Positions 67 to 38,855 are shown, counted from the stretch's first letter. The stretch: DNA of 64,000 nt from Escherichia coli (GCA_902500205.1 GCA_902500205.1_4868.1); one strand, 5' to 3'. The notes: generated from the letters alone by a model not told the origin. Program-made: numbers and translations.

Positions 67-97
67 CGGGGCTTCGGCCCCGTTTTCTTTTTTTTTT
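67..97 (+). terminator. Rho-independent terminator
   Basis: GC hairpin cggggc-TTCG-gccccg (67-82) followed by T-run. Confidence 0.7.
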
Positions 98-113: not shown

Positions 114-998
114 ATGCCCTTTTCACTATGGAACAGAGCCATGATTGATATTTATACCGACTATGCGGCTGTATTGACAGTCAACCGTCACGAAGGTCGT
201 GCAGCACCGATGCTAGATTTAGTGACGCTCGGTATGGATTACGGTTACGATGTGGCGTTATCCGATGTTTATAGCAACCCGTTGTCTGACCCCGCGGACG
301 AAACTGTCCGTCTGGAATCCATTATCGTGAAGGTAGCGGTTGGATTAGGCAACCGCCTCGGTATCGGACTTAATCCACAAATCGTCTTCCAGAAACCGAA
401 AGAAACCGTACGTATCCTTCACGGTGTGTTGGAAGCCTTCGAAGAGTTCGAAGACAGTGATGCCCTTTACGGGATTGTCTCCTCTGGTGAGACACCAGAG
501 TATATCCTGGAGAACATGTGTCGTTATGTTTACGGTGACGAAAACCTGCACTTCGAAGACCTGATTACTGTTGTCAGCCCACGCGTGCTTACCGTGATGG
601 AGAACTTCTTAGCAGCAGAGTCGTTGGAAAGCCAGAAAAGAAATGGCGATGATGAGCGCCAAGAACGTATCGTCACTTACTTGCGGTTGTTCCCTGAGAA
701 CCCGTCAGCGTTTGTCTTTATGAATCTGCCTGCTGAACCAGACTTAACAGTGGTGCAACAATCGTTAGAATTTCGCGTAGAGGACATTAGCGAAATTGAT
801 TTGCTGACGATGTATGCGGTAGGTTTATCGATTATTCCTCATGCGGAGTTTGATGGGGCTTACGGTGACTTAGAAAAGAACCTTGCCCTGTTGAACGTCG
901 ACAACGTCCCGCCTGGAGAAATCTTGCGGAAAGGATTGGAAGCGTTGAAAGTCATATACGCTAGTGGGGACGCGGAGGTAGATGATGAACAAGATTGA
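114..998 (+). CDS. Hypothetical acidic protein; overlaps and is probably co-translated with the downstream RNAP beta'-like gene
   Basis: 294-aa ORF; 17-nt overlap with next gene; no recognisable motif. Confidence 0.5.
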   Translation: MPFSLWNRAMIDIYTDYAAVLTVNRHEGRAAPMLDLVTLGMDYGYDVALSDVYSNPLSDPADETVRLESIIVKVAVGLGNRLGIGLNPQIVFQKPKETVRILHGVLEAFEEFEDSDALYGIVSSGETPEYILENMCRYVYGDENLHFEDLITVVSPRVLTVMENFLAAESLESQKRNGDDERQERIVTYLRLFPENPSAFVFMNLPAEPDLTVVQQSLEFRVEDISEIDLLTMYAVGLSIIPHAEFDGAYGDLEKNLALLNVDNVPPGEILRKGLEALKVIYASGDAEVDDEQD

Positions 999-2280
999 CT
1001 ATCTGGTCGCTGCGTGTAAAGCAGAAGCTTGGCGTAGACTGGTGTGGCGTATTGCGGTTTTCAACGTGGCAATCTTTAATGAAAAAGGTGAGCCACCTGA
1101 GCAATACGACCTGAACTACATTGACGGCTTGCCCCACTACTGGGAAAACGAAGAAATTAAATGGGTGCCGATTGAAGGGTGCAAAAAAGATGAAGAGCTG
1201 TTCGTGCCGGAAGAGCAGTTTGAATTGCGTCCTGAGATGTACCCAGGTTTAGCTGGTCCCATTCCGACTACCGTGGGTCGCTATGTCTTTAACTGGATTG
1301 CCATCTATTACGCTTTCGGTACCCGTCTCCCGTATCTGGCAGAGTCTCGTGACCCACTAGCCTACCGTAAAGAGATGTATGAGCGTTGTGTGGAATATGA
1401 CGACAGCGATCCAGACAACGAAGACGCGATTCGACCGTACATGATAGGACGCTTTGTAGGGGGTCTACACGAGCTTGCTCCGTTGTGTCGTGGGATTGCC
1501 CCAACAGGAACTATTAGAAGCCTTACAACGCATCCTGACGCGTATAAGGTACGAGATGCGTTGCTGTTGAAGCACAAAGACGAACTGGATAACCCTGCGG
1601 TTATCGTTATGATTGAAAAAGCTCTCGACGAACTTGATAAAGAGTGGTTGAGTGGCGACCAGTCCGTTGAGTTCTACAGCTCTCCTAAAGCGCGTATGCG
1701 TCGCCGTAAGCTGATGCTGATGTATGGTATTCAGACCGCTTTTAAAGAAGGTGCAGATTTTACCTTAATCCCAACGAGTCTGATGGAAGTTGATCAGACC
1801 GGGATGAAGTATCTGGTAGAGAAATTCAATGATACGCGAGAAGGTTCCTTCATGCGTGGTGCAGAAACTGCCAAGGGCGGGGAGCAAGTACGTATCATCC
1901 AGATGATCTTCCAGAACCACAAAATCGTACCTGGTGATTGCGGGACAAAACTGACACATGCAGTTGTAATTAACCAGTATAACTACAAGCGTTATGTTGG
2001 CATGAACGCGATGATTAACGGTAAAGTTACCCAACTCACCGAAGAGTATTTGAAAACGCAATTCGGTAAAGTTGTTCGACTCCGCCGACCCATCTTATGT
2101 CAGCAAGGTCACGTAGACTGTTGTGCGGCGTGCGCCTCTGCACACAAAGCAGAAGAGCCACGGGCAATCGCTGCGGATATCTCTTCCGGCTTCTCGAACG
2201 TTATGACCACCGCAATGGGTGCGATGCACGGTCGTGAAACCGTGGTTAAAGAGTACATCCCTAAATTCCACATCACCTAA
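982..2280 (+). CDS. Multisubunit RNA polymerase beta'-like subunit, C-terminal portion (split rpoC, regions F/G-like)
   Basis: GGAGG RBS 974-978. By-eye alignment to bacterial beta': ...MRGAETAKGG...VRIIQMIFQ...PGDCGT (cf. HGARKGLADTALKT...LTRRLVDVAQ...EDDCGT), Cys cluster CQQGHVDCCAAC (cf. CDTDFGVCAHC), then AIAADISSGFSNVMTTAMGAMHG (cf. [26 protein letters not shown] trigger loop). Confidence 0.55.
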   Translation: MMNKIDYLVAACKAEAWRRLVWRIAVFNVAIFNEKGEPPEQYDLNYIDGLPHYWENEEIKWVPIEGCKKDEELFVPEEQFELRPEMYPGLAGPIPTTVGRYVFNWIAIYYAFGTRLPYLAESRDPLAYRKEMYERCVEYDDSDPDNEDAIRPYMIGRFVGGLHELAPLCRGIAPTGTIRSLTTHPDAYKVRDALLLKHKDELDNPAVIVMIEKALDELDKEWLSGDQSVEFYSSPKARMRRRKLMLMYGIQTAFKEGADFTLIPTSLMEVDQTGMKYLVEKFNDTREGSFMRGAETAKGGEQVRIIQMIFQNHKIVPGDCGTKLTHAVVINQYNYKRYVGMNAMINGKVTQLTEEYLKTQFGKVVRLRRPILCQQGHVDCCAACASAHKAEEPRAIAADISSGFSNVMTTAMGAMHGRETVVKEYIPKFHIT

Positions 2281-2293
2281 GGATTGTTTCCTC

Positions 2294-2794
2294 ATGACTA
2301 AGAAAGACACTACTACCCTTGACCCGCGTACAGAAGGCGTGGTCCGTGATAGCGCTTCTTACAGCAACGACGACCAATATCGTGTTAAACTGATCACCAC
2401 GATGCTCGATGAAGCAGGTAACAATGCCGGTCCACGCAAAGCATCTGGTACCCAGGCTGAGAAAGATGCGTATAATAAGCTGCATCACTCTTTCCGTGAG
2501 CTGTTTAAACTGCGCGGTCAGGCATTCCTGGACGGTTTCTACGCCTTCGTAGAAGCGGCTAATAAGCATCGTAACGGTATTTTCTACGCACCGGCTGCTA
2601 ATAACCGTATCAGTGAGAACTTCCCGAATCGTGACGAGCGTGAAGTCTTCGTTATCTTTATTAACATGCTGATTCGTTACGCACGTTGCGCCGATAAAGG
2701 CCGTTTCCGTGATACCAACGATGTTGACCGTCTGGCTCGTCGCCTGAACGACCCGGACCTGCGTTCGCTGGTTATGCACGCCTTTGGCGGCTAA
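2294..2794 (+). CDS. Hypothetical protein
   Basis: ORF with AAGGA RBS about 10 nt upstream of ATG 2294; track ORF begins at 2219 but overlaps the previous gene. Confidence 0.5.
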   Translation: MTKKDTTTLDPRTEGVVRDSASYSNDDQYRVKLITTMLDEAGNNAGPRKASGTQAEKDAYNKLHHSFRELFKLRGQAFLDGFYAFVEAANKHRNGIFYAPAANNRISENFPNRDEREVFVIFINMLIRYARCADKGRFRDTNDVDRLARRLNDPDLRSLVMHAFGG

Positions 2795-2803
2795 ATAAAA
2801 GTA

Positions 2804-2843
2804 CCTCTCTACCCTAGGGTAGAGAGGCCTTTCTTTTTTTGTT
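2804..2843. terminator. Bidirectional rho-independent terminator between convergent genes
   Basis: Hairpin cctctctaccctagggtagagagg with A-run upstream and T-run downstream. Confidence 0.7.
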
Positions 2844-4628
2844 TTAGAACCCGCAGATGTACTCCATAGGCTCTGTCACTACTTCCCCTTGCTTACGTAA
2901 GAACGTAGACAGGACAGTGTCTTTGTCCGGTAAGCAGAAGAAGTCTGTCGCTATTTCCATGGCATTAACTCGCCCAGCAGTTAAGTTGACGCCCGTGCGA
3001 CGTCGAATCTCTTCACTAACCCCATTGATGGACAGTAGTTCGATGAGTGTGGTCTCACGAGACTGGTTCATCATGTTTGTGGCCGACGGGTAGGCCTGGG
3101 TTAAGTCCGCATCCGCAGTTTGACCACGGAACGCAGAGTAATATTCGTCAATCTCCTCCAGAATGTTATTCAGACCGTTCTCAGCATTCATACATGCCGT
3201 CAGGGTAACAATCCAACCGTCTGTACCGATAACCTCTTCATCGTAATCGTTACGCATTGCAGACCCTACGGAACCGATGACGTATCCTTTGTCATACAGA
3301 TAATAGGTAAAGGCCACGCAGATACGTTTTGGTAGCGACGGGAAGATATCATACATCGAGAAACCTGCCAGAATGGATATTGCCGAAGACAAGTCGTTCG
3401 TCTTCTTATCCAACAACACGATTAACAAGTTATCCATCATGTTGTATACGGCATATTCGGCAGGGTAGTCCCGTTGCGCTTTTATGTGCCATTGCAGGTT
3501 ATCTTCATACGGCAGTCCAGGAATGTCGAGTTTGTGTAAACCGAGTTCGGTGTACAGTATGGCAGATAACTTGTACGAAGGACGTTGGCCTTCGTGGACA
3601 CGCAACGAACGGAATAACACCATGGCATCCACACAGTAGAAAGACGCAGTACAGTAGAGTACGTGCCACTGTTGTGACGGTGCTTTGGTGAGTGACTTGG
3701 ATTCTGTCTTTTTGTTCGCCTGGTCTTCTTTAAACCACAGACGACGGTATTTCTCCGGAACATCCGGATGGTTAAAGACGCCCAGTGGATCGATACCTTC
3801 TTTCTGCAAGGTTTCCAACATGCGTGAAATATCGAACTGGTGGTTCCATGCGACCAGCAAATCAGGAAGACGCGGATGAATTTCTTCGAACATCCTGACG
3901 ATGCACTGCCCTGCCGTAGCGCAGGTATAGGTGAATATTTTATAACCGCTGATAATGTCTTTGGTCTTTGTCACCTTTTCGCCAGTCTTTTTGTCTTTCT
4001 CATCGAATTCGATTTTGCTTAAGAGTTCCTGCGCTTTTTTGAGAATGACTTCTTCCGCGTTTTTACCGATGCGGTCCATGTAGTTCTTAGCACCAAAGAA
4101 ATGGATTTCGTCGTCTAAGATAAATGACACGATCCACGGTTCCTTCGTGCCGTCCATTTCGTTAGTCTCCACGTCGTATACGCAAAGACGGTTAGGACTG
4201 ATATTGTTCGGCCAGCGCTTTAAGTATTTCTGTTTAATCCAGCTGGTAATCGGTAAGTCGGCCCAATAAACGTACGGGCTAGTACAGACTCGGCGCAGGT
4301 TCTTTTTCGGGTCAGGGAAACGTGCACCTAAACCCATCTGCAACGTCTTCGCCATCTGCGCATCAGTAGTCCAGAGTTCTTGACATTTTCCTTTTTCTTC
4401 GAACTCTTTTTTCTCCTGGTGGTTACGATATTCTTCACGGGTAACGTACACCGGACGCTTTAAATTCTCACGCATTACCAAGCGCGGGATAAGCCTGCCA
4501 TCCTTAGTATGGATGACCTCTTTGATGAGGACAAAGTCATTTTCTTTTTCTTCGTCCGTCGCATAAGCGACGTGCTTGCACTCTTTAGCGATGACATCCT
4601 CGGGTGCGTAATAGGTATTGATTTCCAT
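2844..4628 (-). CDS. DnaQ-like (DEDDy) 3'-5' exonuclease domain protein
   Basis: 594 aa; motifs in order VYDVETN (Exo I, D-x-E), AWNHQFD (Exo II), YNMMDNLL (Exo III, Y-x3-D). Confidence 0.5.
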   Translation of the reverse strand: MEINTYYAPEDVIAKECKHVAYATDEEKENDFVLIKEVIHTKDGRLIPRLVMRENLKRPVYVTREEYRNHQEKKEFEEKGKCQELWTTDAQMAKTLQMGLGARFPDPKKNLRRVCTSPYVYWADLPITSWIKQKYLKRWPNNISPNRLCVYDVETNEMDGTKEPWIVSFILDDEIHFFGAKNYMDRIGKNAEEVILKKAQELLSKIEFDEKDKKTGEKVTKTKDIISGYKIFTYTCATAGQCIVRMFEEIHPRLPDLLVAWNHQFDISRMLETLQKEGIDPLGVFNHPDVPEKYRRLWFKEDQANKKTESKSLTKAPSQQWHVLYCTASFYCVDAMVLFRSLRVHEGQRPSYKLSAILYTELGLHKLDIPGLPYEDNLQWHIKAQRDYPAEYAVYNMMDNLLIVLLDKKTNDLSSAISILAGFSMYDIFPSLPKRICVAFTYYLYDKGYVIGSVGSAMRNDYDEEVIGTDGWIVTLTACMNAENGLNNILEEIDEYYSAFRGQTADADLTQAYPSATNMMNQSRETTLIELLSINGVSEEIRRRTGVNLTAGRVNAMEIATDFFCLPDKDTVLSTFLRKQGEVVTEPMEYICGF

Positions 4629-31725: not shown

Positions 31726-34026
31726 ATGAAAGATACCCGTATCGCTAGTCTGGACCAGCTGGTTCAGCAGGGCAATGCTCTGGTCGCTGCTGCCAAGGCA
31801 GGCTCTTCCGCTAATGACGTATGGCAAACCGTAGCCGTTGGCGAATCTGTACGTAAAAATGCTGCCGGCTTCACCAACCTGCGTGACACTGCTCAGCAGC
31901 ACTACGAAGCTGTAAACCCTGGCAAAACCATGAGCCACGCTGCTCAGGTTGCTTCTGCGATGATTCTGGCTGCTGCCGGTCACGAAGACGACTTCATGAC
32001 CCGTGTTGCTGCCGAGAGCGCGAAGCCGGAATACGCCAGCTACATGCCGATCGCTATTTCTGGTGCAGCATCTCTGGCTGCTGACTACGGTAAAACTCCG
32101 CTGGTCGCAACTGAATACTACACCAACAAAGACCTGGACAAAAACCTGGGTCTGACCTGGACGCTGAACGTGCGTGCTCTGGAAACTCAATCCAAGTTTG
32201 CAGAAACCCTGTTCCCGACCATCACTGTGGACACCAACGACGTCGGCATCACCGTTCGTACCAAAGTTACTACTGTAACTCGTGGTATCCTGAACGCCCT
32301 GCTGACCAAAGACGTGGTTGAAGACAACCGTCAGCCGCTGCATAACGCGCTGTCTAACCACAAAGTCCTGCAGGACGATGCTATCCGTATCGTACCTTAC
32401 GTGATGGAAACCGGTGAGAACGCGAAGTTCTTCGTATCCGAAGACATCATCGAAAACGAAAACGTTCAGCTGGGTCGTGTGCCGGCGTATCCGACCAACT
32501 ACCTGAGCTTCTCTGAACGTCGTCTGAACCTGTTCCAGCTGTCTGCCCATCCGGGTATCGTGCAGGAAGGTTACGATGAAACCGACGAAATCGCACCGGG
32601 TGCAGCGCTGGGTAGCCTGCTGCTGTCTGTGCGTAAGCCGACCGAAGAAGCGAAAGATGGCGCGCTGATCAAACTGAACGTACGCGACATGCAGTTCGCT
32701 ACCTTCCAGCGTCCTCCTGAAGGTGATGGCCGTGAGCTGGTCCTGCAGTTCCGTCGCACTGTGTTCTCCCTGAACGCCAAGTCTCTGGACTGGAAAGGTG
32801 CTGAAATCCCGGCACTGGCCGCTCTGGCACAGAACGATTACACCATTCGTTATTCCATGAACATCAGCATGTCTCTGTTCACCAACGGTCAGTTCTCTGG
32901 TCGTGTTGACGTGACTGCACCGTCTCTGGAAATCGAAGGTCTGTACGACGCAACTGGTACTGCTGTTGATATCGAAAGCGGCACCGGTAAAGTGATCATC
33001 GACAACCTGAAACTGGAGCTGCTGGGCTGGCGCTTCGACGGTACTCGTACCAACGAGAACCGGAGAACCCAGGGCCTTCTGCTCGACCCGATTTGGGAAC
33101 AAGAGAACTACAAACTGCAGTACGGTTCTCCGATCATGACCAAATCTCCGGTTGGCGTTGAATACGACGACACCGAACGTCTGGACGACCTCGTTTCTGC
33201 GGTTAACATCCGTAACGAAATGCTGGCTATCACTCAGACTCTGTCTTACACCGAAGCGGTTAAGAACGCAGCTGCGTCCATGATCACTCCGTGGGACAAA
33301 CCTGCTATCCGCGGCCTGGGCCGTCACTGGGTTGCTCCGTGGTACAGCGAAAGCGACTACGAAGTGGACAAAGTGATCCAGTCTCTGGATACCAAAGATG
33401 CGCTCATCAACGCCCGTCAGGGTCTGGTACAGCGTATCGGTGACCAGGTAACTCGTGCTATCCAGGACTCTCGCTTCATGCCGGCTCTGCGCCTGCTGAC
33501 TGCGGACCCGAACGCACTGCCGAAAGTTGTTATCGCAACTGACGAACCGACTGCTGCAATGCTGCTGCTGGTTCAGGGTGACCAGCGTCTGCTGGGCGAT
33601 CGCTACGAGTACGAAGTTATCACCACCAACGATGACCGCTGGCGTGTGAAGAACGAAGCTGACGGCAGCTGGACTCGCCGCCTGCAGTGGGTTCTGAAAG
33701 TTCCAACCGCTGATGATGGTTCTTACTGTGTTCTGAACTGGGGTAACCACTTCTGGTCTCCGATCATGGTAACCAACATCAACATCCAGCGTAACGGCGC
33801 TACCAGCAAAGAGCTGGCAGTACAGCCTCGTAACGCGCACATCTGCCACTGCCCGATCACTGGTCTGATCTGGATTAAAGGTATCACCAAGTTCGTGGAA
33901 GAGAAACTGGCGTTCAACGTCACTACTACTTCCAACGGTACCGGCGGTACTAATGGCGGTAATGCGGGTGATGTTGGCGGCGGCGCTACCCAGCCAGGTA
34001 CTGGCGGTGAAGGCGCTGGCGGCTAA
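31726..34026 (+). CDS. Highly expressed virion protein, putative major capsid protein, with Gly-rich C-terminal tail
   Basis: 766 aa; strongest host-like codon bias in window; tail TSNGTGGTNGGNAGDVGGGATQPGTGGEGAGG; strong terminator downstream. Confidence 0.4.
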   Translation: MKDTRIASLDQLVQQGNALVAAAKAGSSANDVWQTVAVGESVRKNAAGFTNLRDTAQQHYEAVNPGKTMSHAAQVASAMILAAAGHEDDFMTRVAAESAKPEYASYMPIAISGAASLAADYGKTPLVATEYYTNKDLDKNLGLTWTLNVRALETQSKFAETLFPTITVDTNDVGITVRTKVTTVTRGILNALLTKDVVEDNRQPLHNALSNHKVLQDDAIRIVPYVMETGENAKFFVSEDIIENENVQLGRVPAYPTNYLSFSERRLNLFQLSAHPGIVQEGYDETDEIAPGAALGSLLLSVRKPTEEAKDGALIKLNVRDMQFATFQRPPEGDGRELVLQFRRTVFSLNAKSLDWKGAEIPALAALAQNDYTIRYSMNISMSLFTNGQFSGRVDVTAPSLEIEGLYDATGTAVDIESGTGKVIIDNLKLELLGWRFDGTRTNENRRTQGLLLDPIWEQENYKLQYGSPIMTKSPVGVEYDDTERLDDLVSAVNIRNEMLAITQTLSYTEAVKNAAASMITPWDKPAIRGLGRHWVAPWYSESDYEVDKVIQSLDTKDALINARQGLVQRIGDQVTRAIQDSRFMPALRLLTADPNALPKVVIATDEPTAAMLLLVQGDQRLLGDRYEYEVITTNDDRWRVKNEADGSWTRRLQWVLKVPTADDGSYCVLNWGNHFWSPIMVTNINIQRNGATSKELAVQPRNAHICHCPITGLIWIKGITKFVEEKLAFNVTTTSNGTGGTNGGNAGDVGGGATQPGTGGEGAGG

Positions 34027-35374: not shown

Positions 35375-37153
35375 GTGTTTAAAGATGCGATTAGGAAGAT
35401 TAAAGAGGCAGGCGAAATAGTGCCTTTTAATCGTGCAATTGCAGAAGGAGTTGGGTACACACAAGCTAAAGACGGGATACATGATCGTGTGGCAACCATT
35501 CTACGTCGTGAGTTGACGTATGATGAAATCGATAACCCGAAATTACCAGAAGGGTTAACGGTGTTAGGCTGCCGTCAGATGTCCCCGTTTGAAGCTTTTA
35601 TCTTTAAGTTATCGAAGTCGGATAACAATTCACGAAACAATCGTGGCCGGTCAATTATTAACATCTCATCCACTGACACGTATATGGTAATGGCCTCGTT
35701 CCGTGTTCCAGGCGACCCCCGTCCGGTGCAACGACCGATGAGCTTACCATTTATTCGTCGTGGCGGCTTAATGAACTACTACGGTACAACGTACCACGTA
35801 GCACCTGTAATCCACCAACCTGGTATTTGTCGTGAGCACGGTGGTATCTTTATTAACTTTGACTTCACCCGCAAGGTGTCTATCAAGTTCTGTAAGAAAC
35901 CAACGAAGATTCTGGTGAACGGTCGTCCGGAACAACTGTTCTTACCAGGCACGTCGAATCTGTTTGTCTCAACCGGACAGATTGGACACGACACCGATGA
36001 GAAGCCGTTGATGTATTGGCTCTTCGGGCGCTACGGCTTTAAACAAGCTGTGAAGCGTTATGCGGGCGTTGATGTGACGATTTGGCCAGCGATTAAAGTA
36101 CGTGATGTGGACTTAACGAAGTATGTGGTGATTCAGTCCGGTGAGCCACAACTCGCGAAGACCATCCAGTACGTACTGTTGGTTAAACGTGAAGATATGC
36201 CTAACACCGATGCAGGGCGTTGGGATCAGAATGAACATCTGTTGCTGGTAGCGACTGCTGCGTTCTTCAAAGCAGCGCACTACTACGCAGGTAAACAGAA
36301 CAGTAAGAACGGTCGTGCACCAACACTGCCGGGGCTGTTTACACAGATTAACGAAATGGCAATGGACGAAGATATTGCGAACCTCAACTCTGCAGCCTCC
36401 TGGCGCGAAGTGTTGGGTCGTAGTATTCGCGGACTGAAGCCCTCGGATATCGAACTGAGTCGCAGTATGGACAGCCACTTCCAGGAATGTGAACGCTATG
36501 TCAACAGCACCTTCCGTGGTGAGCTGATGGCAAACGATCCGTCCATCCCTGATGATTTGGATATGTTTGATTTCCTCTGGTATACCACGCAGCTGATGGT
36601 GCGTACTCGTCTTACCAAACAAGATGATATTCCGTCTATGTACGGAAAACGTCTCACGGTAACCGATTACTTACTGTTGGGCCAACGTGGCTTTACCACA
36701 ACGATCTCGAAAATACGTTGGAAGCTGGGGCAGTTGGAACATCGGACTCCAGAGACAGCGGCGAAGTCTATTCGAGACGCACTGAACAAACAGATCGTGC
36801 TCAATCTGGTGATGCGCACCATTACGAGCAACGGCGGTATCAGTTTCTTCAATGCCTCTACAGAATCAATGGTATTGGCAGTGTCTACGCACGCCATCGG
36901 TCAAACCGAAACCGATGCTAAGCGTTCGAAGAAAGGAGGCAAGACCGTTAACTTGAACGACCGTACTAAGCACGCATCCGCGTCGCATCTGGAATGTGGT
37001 AACGTCTACTATATTCCTAAGTCGGCACCGTTTAAGGCGAACATCCTCAACCCGTACATGAAGACCAACCCAAGTTTGGTAATGATGCGGAACCCTAAAC
37101 TGGACCCGTACATCAGACCGACCGAAGAAGACATTGCTAAAATCGGCCGCTAA
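35375..37153 (+). CDS. Hypothetical protein
   Basis: GTG start with GGGAGG RBS; 592 aa. Confidence 0.55.
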   Translation: MFKDAIRKIKEAGEIVPFNRAIAEGVGYTQAKDGIHDRVATILRRELTYDEIDNPKLPEGLTVLGCRQMSPFEAFIFKLSKSDNNSRNNRGRSIINISSTDTYMVMASFRVPGDPRPVQRPMSLPFIRRGGLMNYYGTTYHVAPVIHQPGICREHGGIFINFDFTRKVSIKFCKKPTKILVNGRPEQLFLPGTSNLFVSTGQIGHDTDEKPLMYWLFGRYGFKQAVKRYAGVDVTIWPAIKVRDVDLTKYVVIQSGEPQLAKTIQYVLLVKREDMPNTDAGRWDQNEHLLLVATAAFFKAAHYYAGKQNSKNGRAPTLPGLFTQINEMAMDEDIANLNSAASWREVLGRSIRGLKPSDIELSRSMDSHFQECERYVNSTFRGELMANDPSIPDDLDMFDFLWYTTQLMVRTRLTKQDDIPSMYGKRLTVTDYLLLGQRGFTTTISKIRWKLGQLEHRTPETAAKSIRDALNKQIVLNLVMRTITSNGGISFFNASTESMVLAVSTHAIGQTETDAKRSKKGGKTVNLNDRTKHASASHLECGNVYYIPKSAPFKANILNPYMKTNPSLVMMRNPKLDPYIRPTEEDIAKIGR

Positions 37154-37184: not shown

Positions 37185-38855
37185 ATGAGCATTACTGTTG
37201 AACAAATCAAAAACGTCATCGTTAAACACCTCGATCAGGATGCGGTGCTGTCGCAGCTGAATAACGTGATGCGTAGTCGTAGCATTCCGCCAGATCAGGC
37301 GTTAAAGATTGCGACGTATGTTGCGGCATGGGCAGCATCCAAAGGGGGTAGTGAAGCACAGGTTATCGCATATGCGGTCGACGCGTATAAAGCAGCTGCC
37401 TATCAGCAGGTGCATAACGCGGGCGACGCGTATAACGACGATCGTCACACCAAACTGGTTAATGCTTGGGAACAAGTCGGTAAGATTCTTGCCGAAATTC
37501 GTTCTCAGCAGTCTGGCGGTTTGGGTGGCAGTGGTGGTTTAGGTGGTGGTAGCAACGCAGGTGGGTTACTGGGCGGTAACAGTTCTGGCGGTGTTCGTGT
37601 TACTGATGGCCTGACCATGTCTTCTGCGCCATCTGGTGGTGTTAAGATTGGTAACACAGATGCGGCACTAACCGTGATTGCTGGCGGTGAAGGTCTTAAC
37701 CTGGTCAATGATCCTATTCTGAACCCACAACCGGCGCAAGTAGCCCCAGCACAACAGCCCCGGCCTGAACCAGCACCGGTGCCTGTACAACCAATGCCGG
37801 TGTCTAATGCTACAGTTAATAACCCAGTGCTTTCCCCACTCGGCGCAACAGAAGAAACCGAGAAGGACACTATCAATGGCCCAATTAACAACATTCTGCA
37901 GGAGATTGATTTGATGGAAGACTACGCACTTCACGAGCTGAAAACCCCCGAGCTTAAAATGTCGATTCCAGCGAAGGAAGCTAACAGTCGCATTAAGCAA
38001 TCTGTTTACGCGGAAACGCGTGATTGGGCTACACCGTTGCAAGATATCTTTAACGGTAATGAAGAGGTTGTTTTCTACGACGGGGCTGACCTGATTGTGC
38101 GTGCACGGGATAGTTATCGCGCGTATCTGGTCGGTGTTAACACTGATATGTGCGAACGCATGAAGCAATTTGTTGCTAAGCACGACGCGTTGAAATCCGA
38201 TCTCGACAGCCTGGCGCTGGTAGAAGATGTTGAAACTATCATGGCTAAGGTGAAACGTACGATCGATGAACTGCGTAAGAACACGAAAGAACTGCACGAT
38301 TATGCGATTGCGAACAGCAGCGAAGCAGAAGTGGTTATCAGTGAGATTTCTCGCTTTGCTAATGCGTACCTGGCGAACATCACGTTCTTGGTACACAATG
38401 CGCTGTCGCTGGGCACTAAGCGCGGTAAAGATGTGCCGAAGTTCAAAGCCATCGATTTCGAACGCAAAATCAGCGATATTGATTTCTTCGTAAAAGATCT
38501 GTTCACTGCAACCGCTGGCGACAACGGCGTCAGTGAATATGAAGACTGGTTCCGTGACCTGTTCTTGATGGTGGCGAACTCTCTGCGCAAACTGACTATT
38601 AAGCTGAGCGATTCCGGCAAAGTAGTTAATCTGATTCAGAGCCAGTTCACTATTGTAATTCCAGGCATGTACCATTCCGTTGATAAGCATGATGTGGTTA
38701 CGGTAGCGTCTTTGGGCAATACCGCAGACCCTGTTGTATCTATCTACGAAGCTGTGCAGGAAAACGTGCCACATGCAATTGTATTGATGCAGCTGCCGCA
38801 GCACACCTATCTGCTTCTGAGCAATGGTGAGAAAACTGCACCAGTGTTGTACTAA
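37185..38855 (+). CDS. Hypothetical virion protein with Gly-rich and Pro/Gln-rich linker
   Basis: RBS CTTAAGGAGTATT; low-complexity SGGLGGSGGLGGGSNAGGLLGGNSSGG and PQPAQVAPAQQPRPEPAPVPVQPMPV. Confidence 0.55.
   Translation: MSITVEQIKNVIVKHLDQDAVLSQLNNVMRSRSIPPDQALKIATYVAAWAASKGGSEAQVIAYAVDAYKAAAYQQVHNAGDAYNDDRHTKLVNAWEQVGKILAEIRSQQSGGLGGSGGLGGGSNAGGLLGGNSSGGVRVTDGLTMSSAPSGGVKIGNTDAALTVIAGGEGLNLVNDPILNPQPAQVAPAQQPRPEPAPVPVQPMPVSNATVNNPVLSPLGATEETEKDTINGPINNILQEIDLMEDYALHELKTPELKMSIPAKEANSRIKQSVYAETRDWATPLQDIFNGNEEVVFYDGADLIVRARDSYRAYLVGVNTDMCERMKQFVAKHDALKSDLDSLALVEDVETIMAKVKRTIDELRKNTKELHDYAIANSSEAEVVISEISRFANAYLANITFLVHNALSLGTKRGKDVPKFKAIDFERKISDIDFFVKDLFTATAGDNGVSEYEDWFRDLFLMVANSLRKLTIKLSDSGKVVNLIQSQFTIVIPGMYHSVDKHDVVTVASLGNTADPVVSIYEAVQENVPHAIVLMQLPQHTYLLLSNGEKTAPVLY

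Follow-up and report, generated by a model that had tools for sequence, protein, structure and literature searches.

A free-standing piece of RNA polymerase β′ in an SPN3US-type jumbo phage is very probably the middle third of the subunit in a five-polypeptide virion enzyme

A stretch of DNA of 64,000 nucleotides filed under Escherichia coli (GCA_902500205.1), hereafter termed the window, contains close to its beginning an open reading frame (ORF) on the plus strand (982..2280, starting from the ATG at 982) whose product of 432 amino acids, referred to as gp42, raises the question of which part of which RNA polymerase (RNAP) it encodes. A preliminary description made from the sequence had noted, in this order, a bridge-helix-like stretch, a DCGT motif, a Cys cluster and a trigger-loop-like stretch (AIAADISSGFSNVMTTAMGAMHG, residues 395-417) and had proposed the protein to be the C-terminal piece of a split β′ subunit, packaged into the virions of a phiKZ-like jumbo phage. 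We find the ORF and all of these elements in the described arrangement. From the analysis presented below, gp42 very probably is β′M, the middle third of β′, and part of the virion RNA polymerase (vRNAP) that a jumbo phage of the SPN3US type (Seoulvirus) builds from five polypeptides. Residue numbers throughout refer to the 432-residue ORF.

The origin of the DNA is evident from its closest relatives. With Escherichia phage vB_EcoM_EC001 the first 8 kb of the window share 98.9% identity and with Salmonella phage SPN3US 98.7%, window position 1 corresponding to position 38383 of the latter. Since SPN3US is related to phiKZ, the assumed jumbo phage source was correct, and as EC001 is slightly closer, the DNA may stem from a Seoulvirus isolate other than SPN3US. 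On the amino acid level, gp42 is 99.8% identical to SPN3US_0042 (AEP83875.1), whose record carries the label 'putative DNA-directed RNA polymerase beta subunit 3'. A tblastn search across 300 jumbo-phage records identified one gp42 homologue per genome, and within PHROGs the protein matches phrog_2962 over positions 1-433 of 433 (E 1e-175). Its match in phiKZ is gp80, annotated as structural head protein, which in BLASTP aligns colinearly over residues 5-415 with 27% identity (E 1e-41) and which, by this alignment, is the ortholog of gp42.

We base the membership of gp42 in the β′ family on a profile search of the PDB and on its predicted fold. A profile constructed from the alignment of 41 homologues, which extend down to 26% identity, provided 77 matches at E up to 1, every one of them a β′ chain, headed by the β′C subunit of phage AR9's non-virion RNA polymerase (nvRNAP; 4.8e-5), Francisella β′ (2.7e-4) and phiKZ gp74 (5e-3). 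The fold predicted by AlphaFold is clearly that of β′, with the bridge-helix/trigger-loop region superposing on solved largest subunits, and its matches include cyanobacterial and plastid RpoC2 chains. As judged from profile and model, gp42 is β′ and not β.

The same relationship is manifested in the residues surrounding the active site. When mapped on E. coli β′, for which the employed rpoC sequence was verified by its 100% match to the annotated rpoC, gp42 covers roughly residues 484-950 and contains the TTVGR motif, bridge helix, DCGT motif, Cys cluster and trigger helix in colinear order and with similar spacing (Table 1), the mapped landmark residues falling exactly on those columns of the 41-sequence alignment that are invariant or nearly so. 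The bridge-helix region carries a conserved Gly/Thr-Ala pattern and is modelled as a single long helix at 278-311. In the DCGT motif, C320 is equivalent to C814, the first zinc ligand of E. coli β′, and the remaining ligands find their counterparts in the Cys cluster spanning residues 373-386, where C381 is retained in at least 90% of the sequences and C373 and C384 in all of them. By these correspondences, gp42 is predicted to hold the second zinc site of β′ with its four Cys ligands. The trigger region is modelled as helix at 395-416, with M408, M412, M415, H416 and G417 being invariant in the family. All of these landmarks coincide with residues published for phiKZ gp74 (bridge helix 242-279, C288/C341/C350/C353 and trigger helix 365-383), where C288 is the counterpart of C320 and C341/C350/C353 of C373/C381/C384.

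The catalytic center of the enzyme is contained in another polypeptide. As had been remarked before, gp42 itself is devoid of NADFDGD or any other DxDGD motif, and in a six-frame scan of the window for the pattern D[FYW]D[GA]D we found none, so the β′N piece is not located in the window. The fragment bearing the motif, which the preliminary description had recommended to search for, is instead found in SPN3US gp240, about 174 kb downstream and outside the window. Its GDYDGD sequence aligns with NADFDGD at positions 458-464 of E. coli β′, which places the catalytic Asp triad on a separate polypeptide, and the match extends to near β′ 504-510, the very point at which gp42 sets in. This alignment confirms the assignment of gp240 as β′N.

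The position of gp42 within β′ is defined by where its chain terminates. In 41 out of 41 family members the polypeptide ends exactly 16 residues past the trigger-loop His, and phiKZ gp80 terminates likewise (His 433 of 449). Only the first trigger helix is thus present in gp42. The two trigger helices of E. coli β′ are separated by the SI3 (β′In6) insertion, and the second helix (GGLPRVADLFEARR) begins only at 1136, about 200 residues past H936, which locates the break of the phage polypeptide to the tip of the trigger loop. Because the chain stops at this point and the remainder of the subunit is assigned to gp244 in the literature, gp42 constitutes a middle piece. Of the initial proposal, the split β′ fragment containing bridge helix, zinc site and first trigger helix thus persists, whereas its placement at the C-terminus does not.

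Evidence for the packaging of the protein comes from previous studies. Thomas et al. (2016) list gp42 as vRNAP β′M and have detected it by mass spectrometry in virions and tailless heads (PMC5105663), and Ali et al. (2017) list it as 'Head ejection, vRNAP beta'M' of 49.3 kDa (PMC5694885). An amber mutation in the β N subunit gp241 leads to the loss of gp42 together with gp218, gp240 and gp244 (PMC5105663), and in the mutants 218(am101) or 244(am84) none of the five subunits is packaged, which led to the conclusion that vRNAP assembles before entering the prohead (PMC5694885). The five-polypeptide core was described by Sokolova et al. (2020) to consist of the N-terminal, the middle and the C-terminal portion of β′ and of the N- and C-terminal portions of β (PMC7598289). 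All five vRNAP subunits are also present in virions of phage Goslar, and work on phiKZ and Goslar describes the injection of vRNAP with the DNA and early transcription from the early-infection vesicle. The proposed virion location of gp42 is thus borne out by its orthology to a head protein and by mass spectrometry. In contrast, its position among structural genes, which had been taken as pointer towards packaging, is unreliable, with the DNA polymerase gene gp44 found two genes away on the opposite strand. Moreover, the nvRNAP gene gp77 adjoins the gene of the major capsid protein and position therefore cannot separate virion from non-virion polymerase genes, while orthology to gp80 and proteomics do.

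In the mechanism that we propose, gp42 would provide the portion of β′ located behind the catalytic double-psi barrel, together with bridge helix, second zinc site and the catalytic His on its first trigger-loop helix, and it would join gp240 (β′N), gp244 (assigned as the rest of β′) and gp241 and gp218 (β) in a two-barrel polymerase lacking α and ω subunits. The bridge helix and trigger loop of gp42 would act during nucleotide addition in the way known from cellular RNAPs. By analogy to phiKZ and other family members, the enzyme would be ejected along with the DNA, and early genes would be transcribed without need of the host RNAP.

The architecture at the trigger loop would be unusual in either of two ways. 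It is possible that the virion enzyme contains a trigger loop whose two arms reside on separate polypeptides or, as no trace of a second arm was found in gp244, that it lacks this arm altogether, and either arrangement, if true, would amount to a natural experiment on trigger-loop function. That the invariant cut at the tip serves a function, instead of having arisen accidentally by gene fission, appears rather unlikely. Its division into small pieces may allow the β′ subunit, and with it the enzyme, to unfold, pass the tail tube and reassemble.

The second half of the trigger loop would be expected in gp244 (240 aa), the protein assigned in the literature as β′C. On the profile level, gp42 aligns to residues 19-402 of the 677-residue phiKZ gp74, and the combined length of gp42 (431 aa) and gp244 amounts to 671 residues compared to 677 in gp74, which fits the published proposal. 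An alignment made by eye, in which SAIETARR at the N-terminus of gp244 was equated with the second trigger helix (ADLFEARR) and the terminal HIT of gp42 with DIT, was rejected in an ungapped scan of β′ and gp74 with a position-specific scoring matrix (PSSM), where the best offset was located elsewhere and no score exceeded the null of shuffled controls. Residues 200-225 of gp244 score best at position 1323 of E. coli β′, in region H, with a score that is not significant. The AlphaFold model of gp244 is weak (predicted local distance difference test score, pLDDT, of 64 and below 50 in the conserved C-terminal 40 residues), and a Foldseek search of the PDB provided nothing below an E of 0.15. 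Versions of gp42 and gp244 in several records of Salmonella phage SPFM show high bit scores at a BLASTP coverage of only 5-25% and odd lengths, which suggests frameshift errors in the assemblies instead of real variants.

Several observations argue against the assignment of gp42 as catalytic β′M subunit. Neither Pfam (E up to 10) nor NCBIfam (E up to 1) contained a family matching the protein, and phmmer, run against the PDB with the single sequence, provided only noise. It is hence too diverged for curated RpoC/Rpb1 models (the RNA_pol_Rpb1 domains of Pfam and rpoC of NCBIfam). The preliminary description had considered a missing RpoC/Rpb1 profile match in combination with an unrelated fold as refutation of its proposal; the profile match is indeed missing in both databases, whereas the predicted fold is that of β′. 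The closest solved relatives found in fold and profile searches of the PDB are at most 17% identical, and no solved vRNAP chain was returned by fold or sequence searches. The isolated AlphaFold model shows a poor overall superposition with a template modelling (TM) score of about 0.3 and a root mean square deviation (rmsd) of 13-16 Å, as expected of a fragment that depends on its complex for folding. Concerning function, the trigger-loop residue R933 of E. coli is not conserved and replaced by Gly, the catalytic roles of H416 and the bridge helix are ones that we infer from their correspondence to E. coli, and by 2020 purification of a vRNAP had not been achieved (PMC7598289). Finally, a profile of 19 gp244 sequences matched neither phiKZ gp74 nor E. 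coli β′, and the identity of gp244 as β′C could not be confirmed independently.

These points have to be weighed against three other interpretations, all of which are contradicted by the evidence and together retain only a small residual probability. The protein could be a subunit of the nvRNAP, since bridge helix and trigger loop occur in the β′ pieces of both phage enzymes and a genuine nvRNAP gene, gp77, is also contained in the window. The closest solved structures are likewise nvRNAP chains (phiKZ gp74 and AR9), simply as the PDB searches returned no structure of a vRNAP. However, it is the head protein gp80 to which gp42 is related from end to end, while the relation to gp74 is confined to the profile level. 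Moreover, nvRNAP β′C continues as one chain of 677 residues to its C-terminus, unlike the gp42 family with its invariant stop, and published mass spectrometry has found gp42 in purified heads, in co-dependence with gp241, gp218 and gp244 (PMC5105663, PMC5694885), which makes such an assignment highly improbable. Similarly improbable is a relic, by which gp42 would be a β′-derived structural or ejection protein of the head that plays no catalytic role in transcription. This interpretation would accommodate the severed trigger loop, the lost arginine and the fact that biochemical activity has been shown for no vRNAP, but it conflicts with the retention of zinc ligands, bridge-helix glycines and threonine and trigger-loop Met and His in homologues of as little as 26% identity, which implies selection on the catalytic machinery. 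It also conflicts with the intact DYDGD triad of the partner gp240, with the essential nature of three vRNAP subunit genes and with the reported injection of the phiKZ vRNAP and its activity in early transcription.

The least probable of the three interpretations is that of a β (RpoB-like) fragment, although it is the one found in most database records, where PHROGs, RefSeq and most GenBank entries carry the product name 'RNA polymerase beta subunit'. Other records read 'hypothetical protein', that of Proteus phage 7 even 'DNA-directed RNA polymerase alpha subunit', and beta prime is named in few records only. Among the profile and fold matches there is no β chain, all being β′ or largest-subunit chains, and β′ alone is marked by a bridge helix, a DCGT/zinc site and a trigger loop. 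The widespread label is thus a loose legacy annotation that is wrong for the gp42 family, the true subunit being β′.

With gp42 as β′M, the value of the locus lies less in the protein itself, since gene, subunit assignment and presence in the head were already published in 2016-2017 and carry little weight as discovery. It instead serves as landmark that identifies the window as part of a Seoulvirus/SPN3US-type, phiKZ-related jumbo phage with two multisubunit RNA polymerases of its own. The remaining question is structural and concerns how a five-piece polymerase with a severed trigger loop assembles, is packaged, passes the tail and works.

Within its locus (Table 1), the gene probably starts at ATG 985, resulting in 431 residues, since the spacing of the GGAGG element is 6 nt to this codon compared to only 3 nt to the ATG at 982. 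The same length is annotated in the SPN3US record and given in Table 5 of Thomas et al. 2016 (PMC5105663). The start overlaps with the preceding gene by 14 nt (985..998), as does gp80 with gp79 in phiKZ (75025..75038). The upstream protein gp41 occupies the position of gp79, a head protein, to which it shows marginal similarity (22% identity, E 0.019); the case for synteny is hence built on location, size and the overlap common to both. An equal overlap despite barely alignable upstream proteins suggests that translational coupling is conserved. The genes gp41, gp42 and gp43 are bracketed by terminator-like hairpins at 67-82 and 2804-2827, of which the latter likely closes the unit. This bidirectional hairpin separates gp43 from gp44, which encodes a DNA polymerase; according to a 2020 review, the family B DNA polymerase is split in these phages (PMC7598289). 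A scan of the window for sigma-70 promoters provided fewer sites than shuffled controls, from which we draw no conclusion, few such sites being expected as the phage does not use the host RNAP.

Table 1. Coordinates of gp42, its landmarks and neighbouring or related features in the window.
Feature	Position	Strand	Description
Terminator-like hairpin, G+C-rich	67..82	none	T runs on both strands; upstream of gp41; consensus scan only
gp41	114..998	+	phrog_7807, function unknown; upstream gene, final 14 nt overlap gp42 start at 985
Shine-Dalgarno-like GGAGG	974..978	+	Read in sequence; 5' of both ATG 982 and ATG 985
β′M coding sequence (SPN3US gp42 ortholog)	985..2280	+	431 aa from probable start; stop codon 2278-2280
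TTVGR, aa 96-100	1267..1281	+	E. coli β′ 572-576; G99 invariant in family
Bridge helix, aa 286-313	1837..1920	+	E. coli β′ 778-806
DCGT, aa 319-322	1936..1947	+	E. coli β′ 813-816; D319 and C320 invariant
Cys cluster	2098..2133	+	aa 373-384; C373, C381, C384 equivalent to E. coli C888, C895, C898, remaining zinc ligands
First trigger-loop helix, aa 395-417	2164..2232	+	M412, H416 equivalent to E. coli M932, H936
C-terminal tail, 15 residues	2233..2277	+	Conserved HIT end; polypeptide ends at trigger-loop tip
gp43	2294..2794	+	166 aa, phrog_7825, function unknown; downstream of gp42, last gene before terminator-like hairpin
Hairpin of 10-11 pairs	2804..2827	none	T runs on both strands; between gp43 (+) and gp44 (-); consensus scan only
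DNA polymerase gene gp44	2844..4628	-	phrog_3011, E 4e-251; two genes from gp42
Major capsid gene	31726..34026		gp77 two genes downstream
gp77, nvRNAP β piece	35375..37153	+	592 aa, phrog_2943 'polymerase'; match to PHIKZ123 of phiKZ (7OGP chain E) at E 3e-20
gp78	37185..38855	+	556 aa, phrog_8185, function unknown; directly downstream of gp77

The second polymerase of the phage is represented in the window by gp77, the N-terminal fragment of nvRNAP β according to Thomas et al. (PMC5105663). Its match PHIKZ123 is a β-like subunit in the solved nvRNAP of phiKZ. For its neighbour gp78 we found no sequence match in the PDB at E up to 0.1. Thomas et al. report this gene to be essential, with its knockout leaving almost no virion proteins made, and suggest a regulatory role (PMC5105663); the protein might act as transcription factor or belong to the nvRNAP as a further subunit. 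The GC content rises to 0.548 at 32001..34000, inside the major capsid protein gene, compared to about 0.48 elsewhere.

When compared to known systems, gp42 of SPN3US is effectively the same gene, in equal neighbourhood and orientation and with only few nucleotide differences. With phiKZ gp80 the protein shares the end-to-end colinearity, the C-terminal cut 16 residues past the trigger-loop His and the 14-nt upstream overlap, and the neighbourhood is alike, with gp80 being followed by the virion protein gp81 and the DNA polymerase gp82, whereas the gp80 sequence is highly diverged, contains a longer insert around the zinc cluster and belongs to another genus and host. Relative to E. coli RpoC, the identity is about 12-17%, and gp42 differs as free-standing polypeptide and by the replacement of R933. 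The β′C subunits of the nvRNAPs, phiKZ gp74 (7OGP/9RJS chain D) and its AR9 counterpart (7S00 chain D), are part of a non-virion enzyme and paralogous instead of orthologous to gp42; gp74 continues for about 275 residues as one chain, while gp42 ends at the trigger-loop tip. A largest subunit distributed over separate polypeptides that form one active site is also known from RpoC1 and RpoC2 of cyanobacteria and plastids and from A′ and A′′ of archaea. In the cyanobacterial β′ chains 8gzg_Z and 8syi_Z, residues of about 165-232 align to positions 260-327 of the gp42 profile, which puts the beginning of these chains near gp42 residue 95. By this rough estimate, which ignores insertions and deletions, the β′N/β′M cut of the phage appears to be located roughly 95 residues upstream of the RpoC1/RpoC2 cut; a 2020 review describes phage and cyanobacterial split sites as coinciding (PMC7598289). 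For cyanobacteria and archaea, PMC5105663 and PMC7598289 describe no split site at the trigger-loop tip, and the β′ subunit of the phage vRNAP is cut twice, whereas that of cyanobacteria and archaea is cut once.
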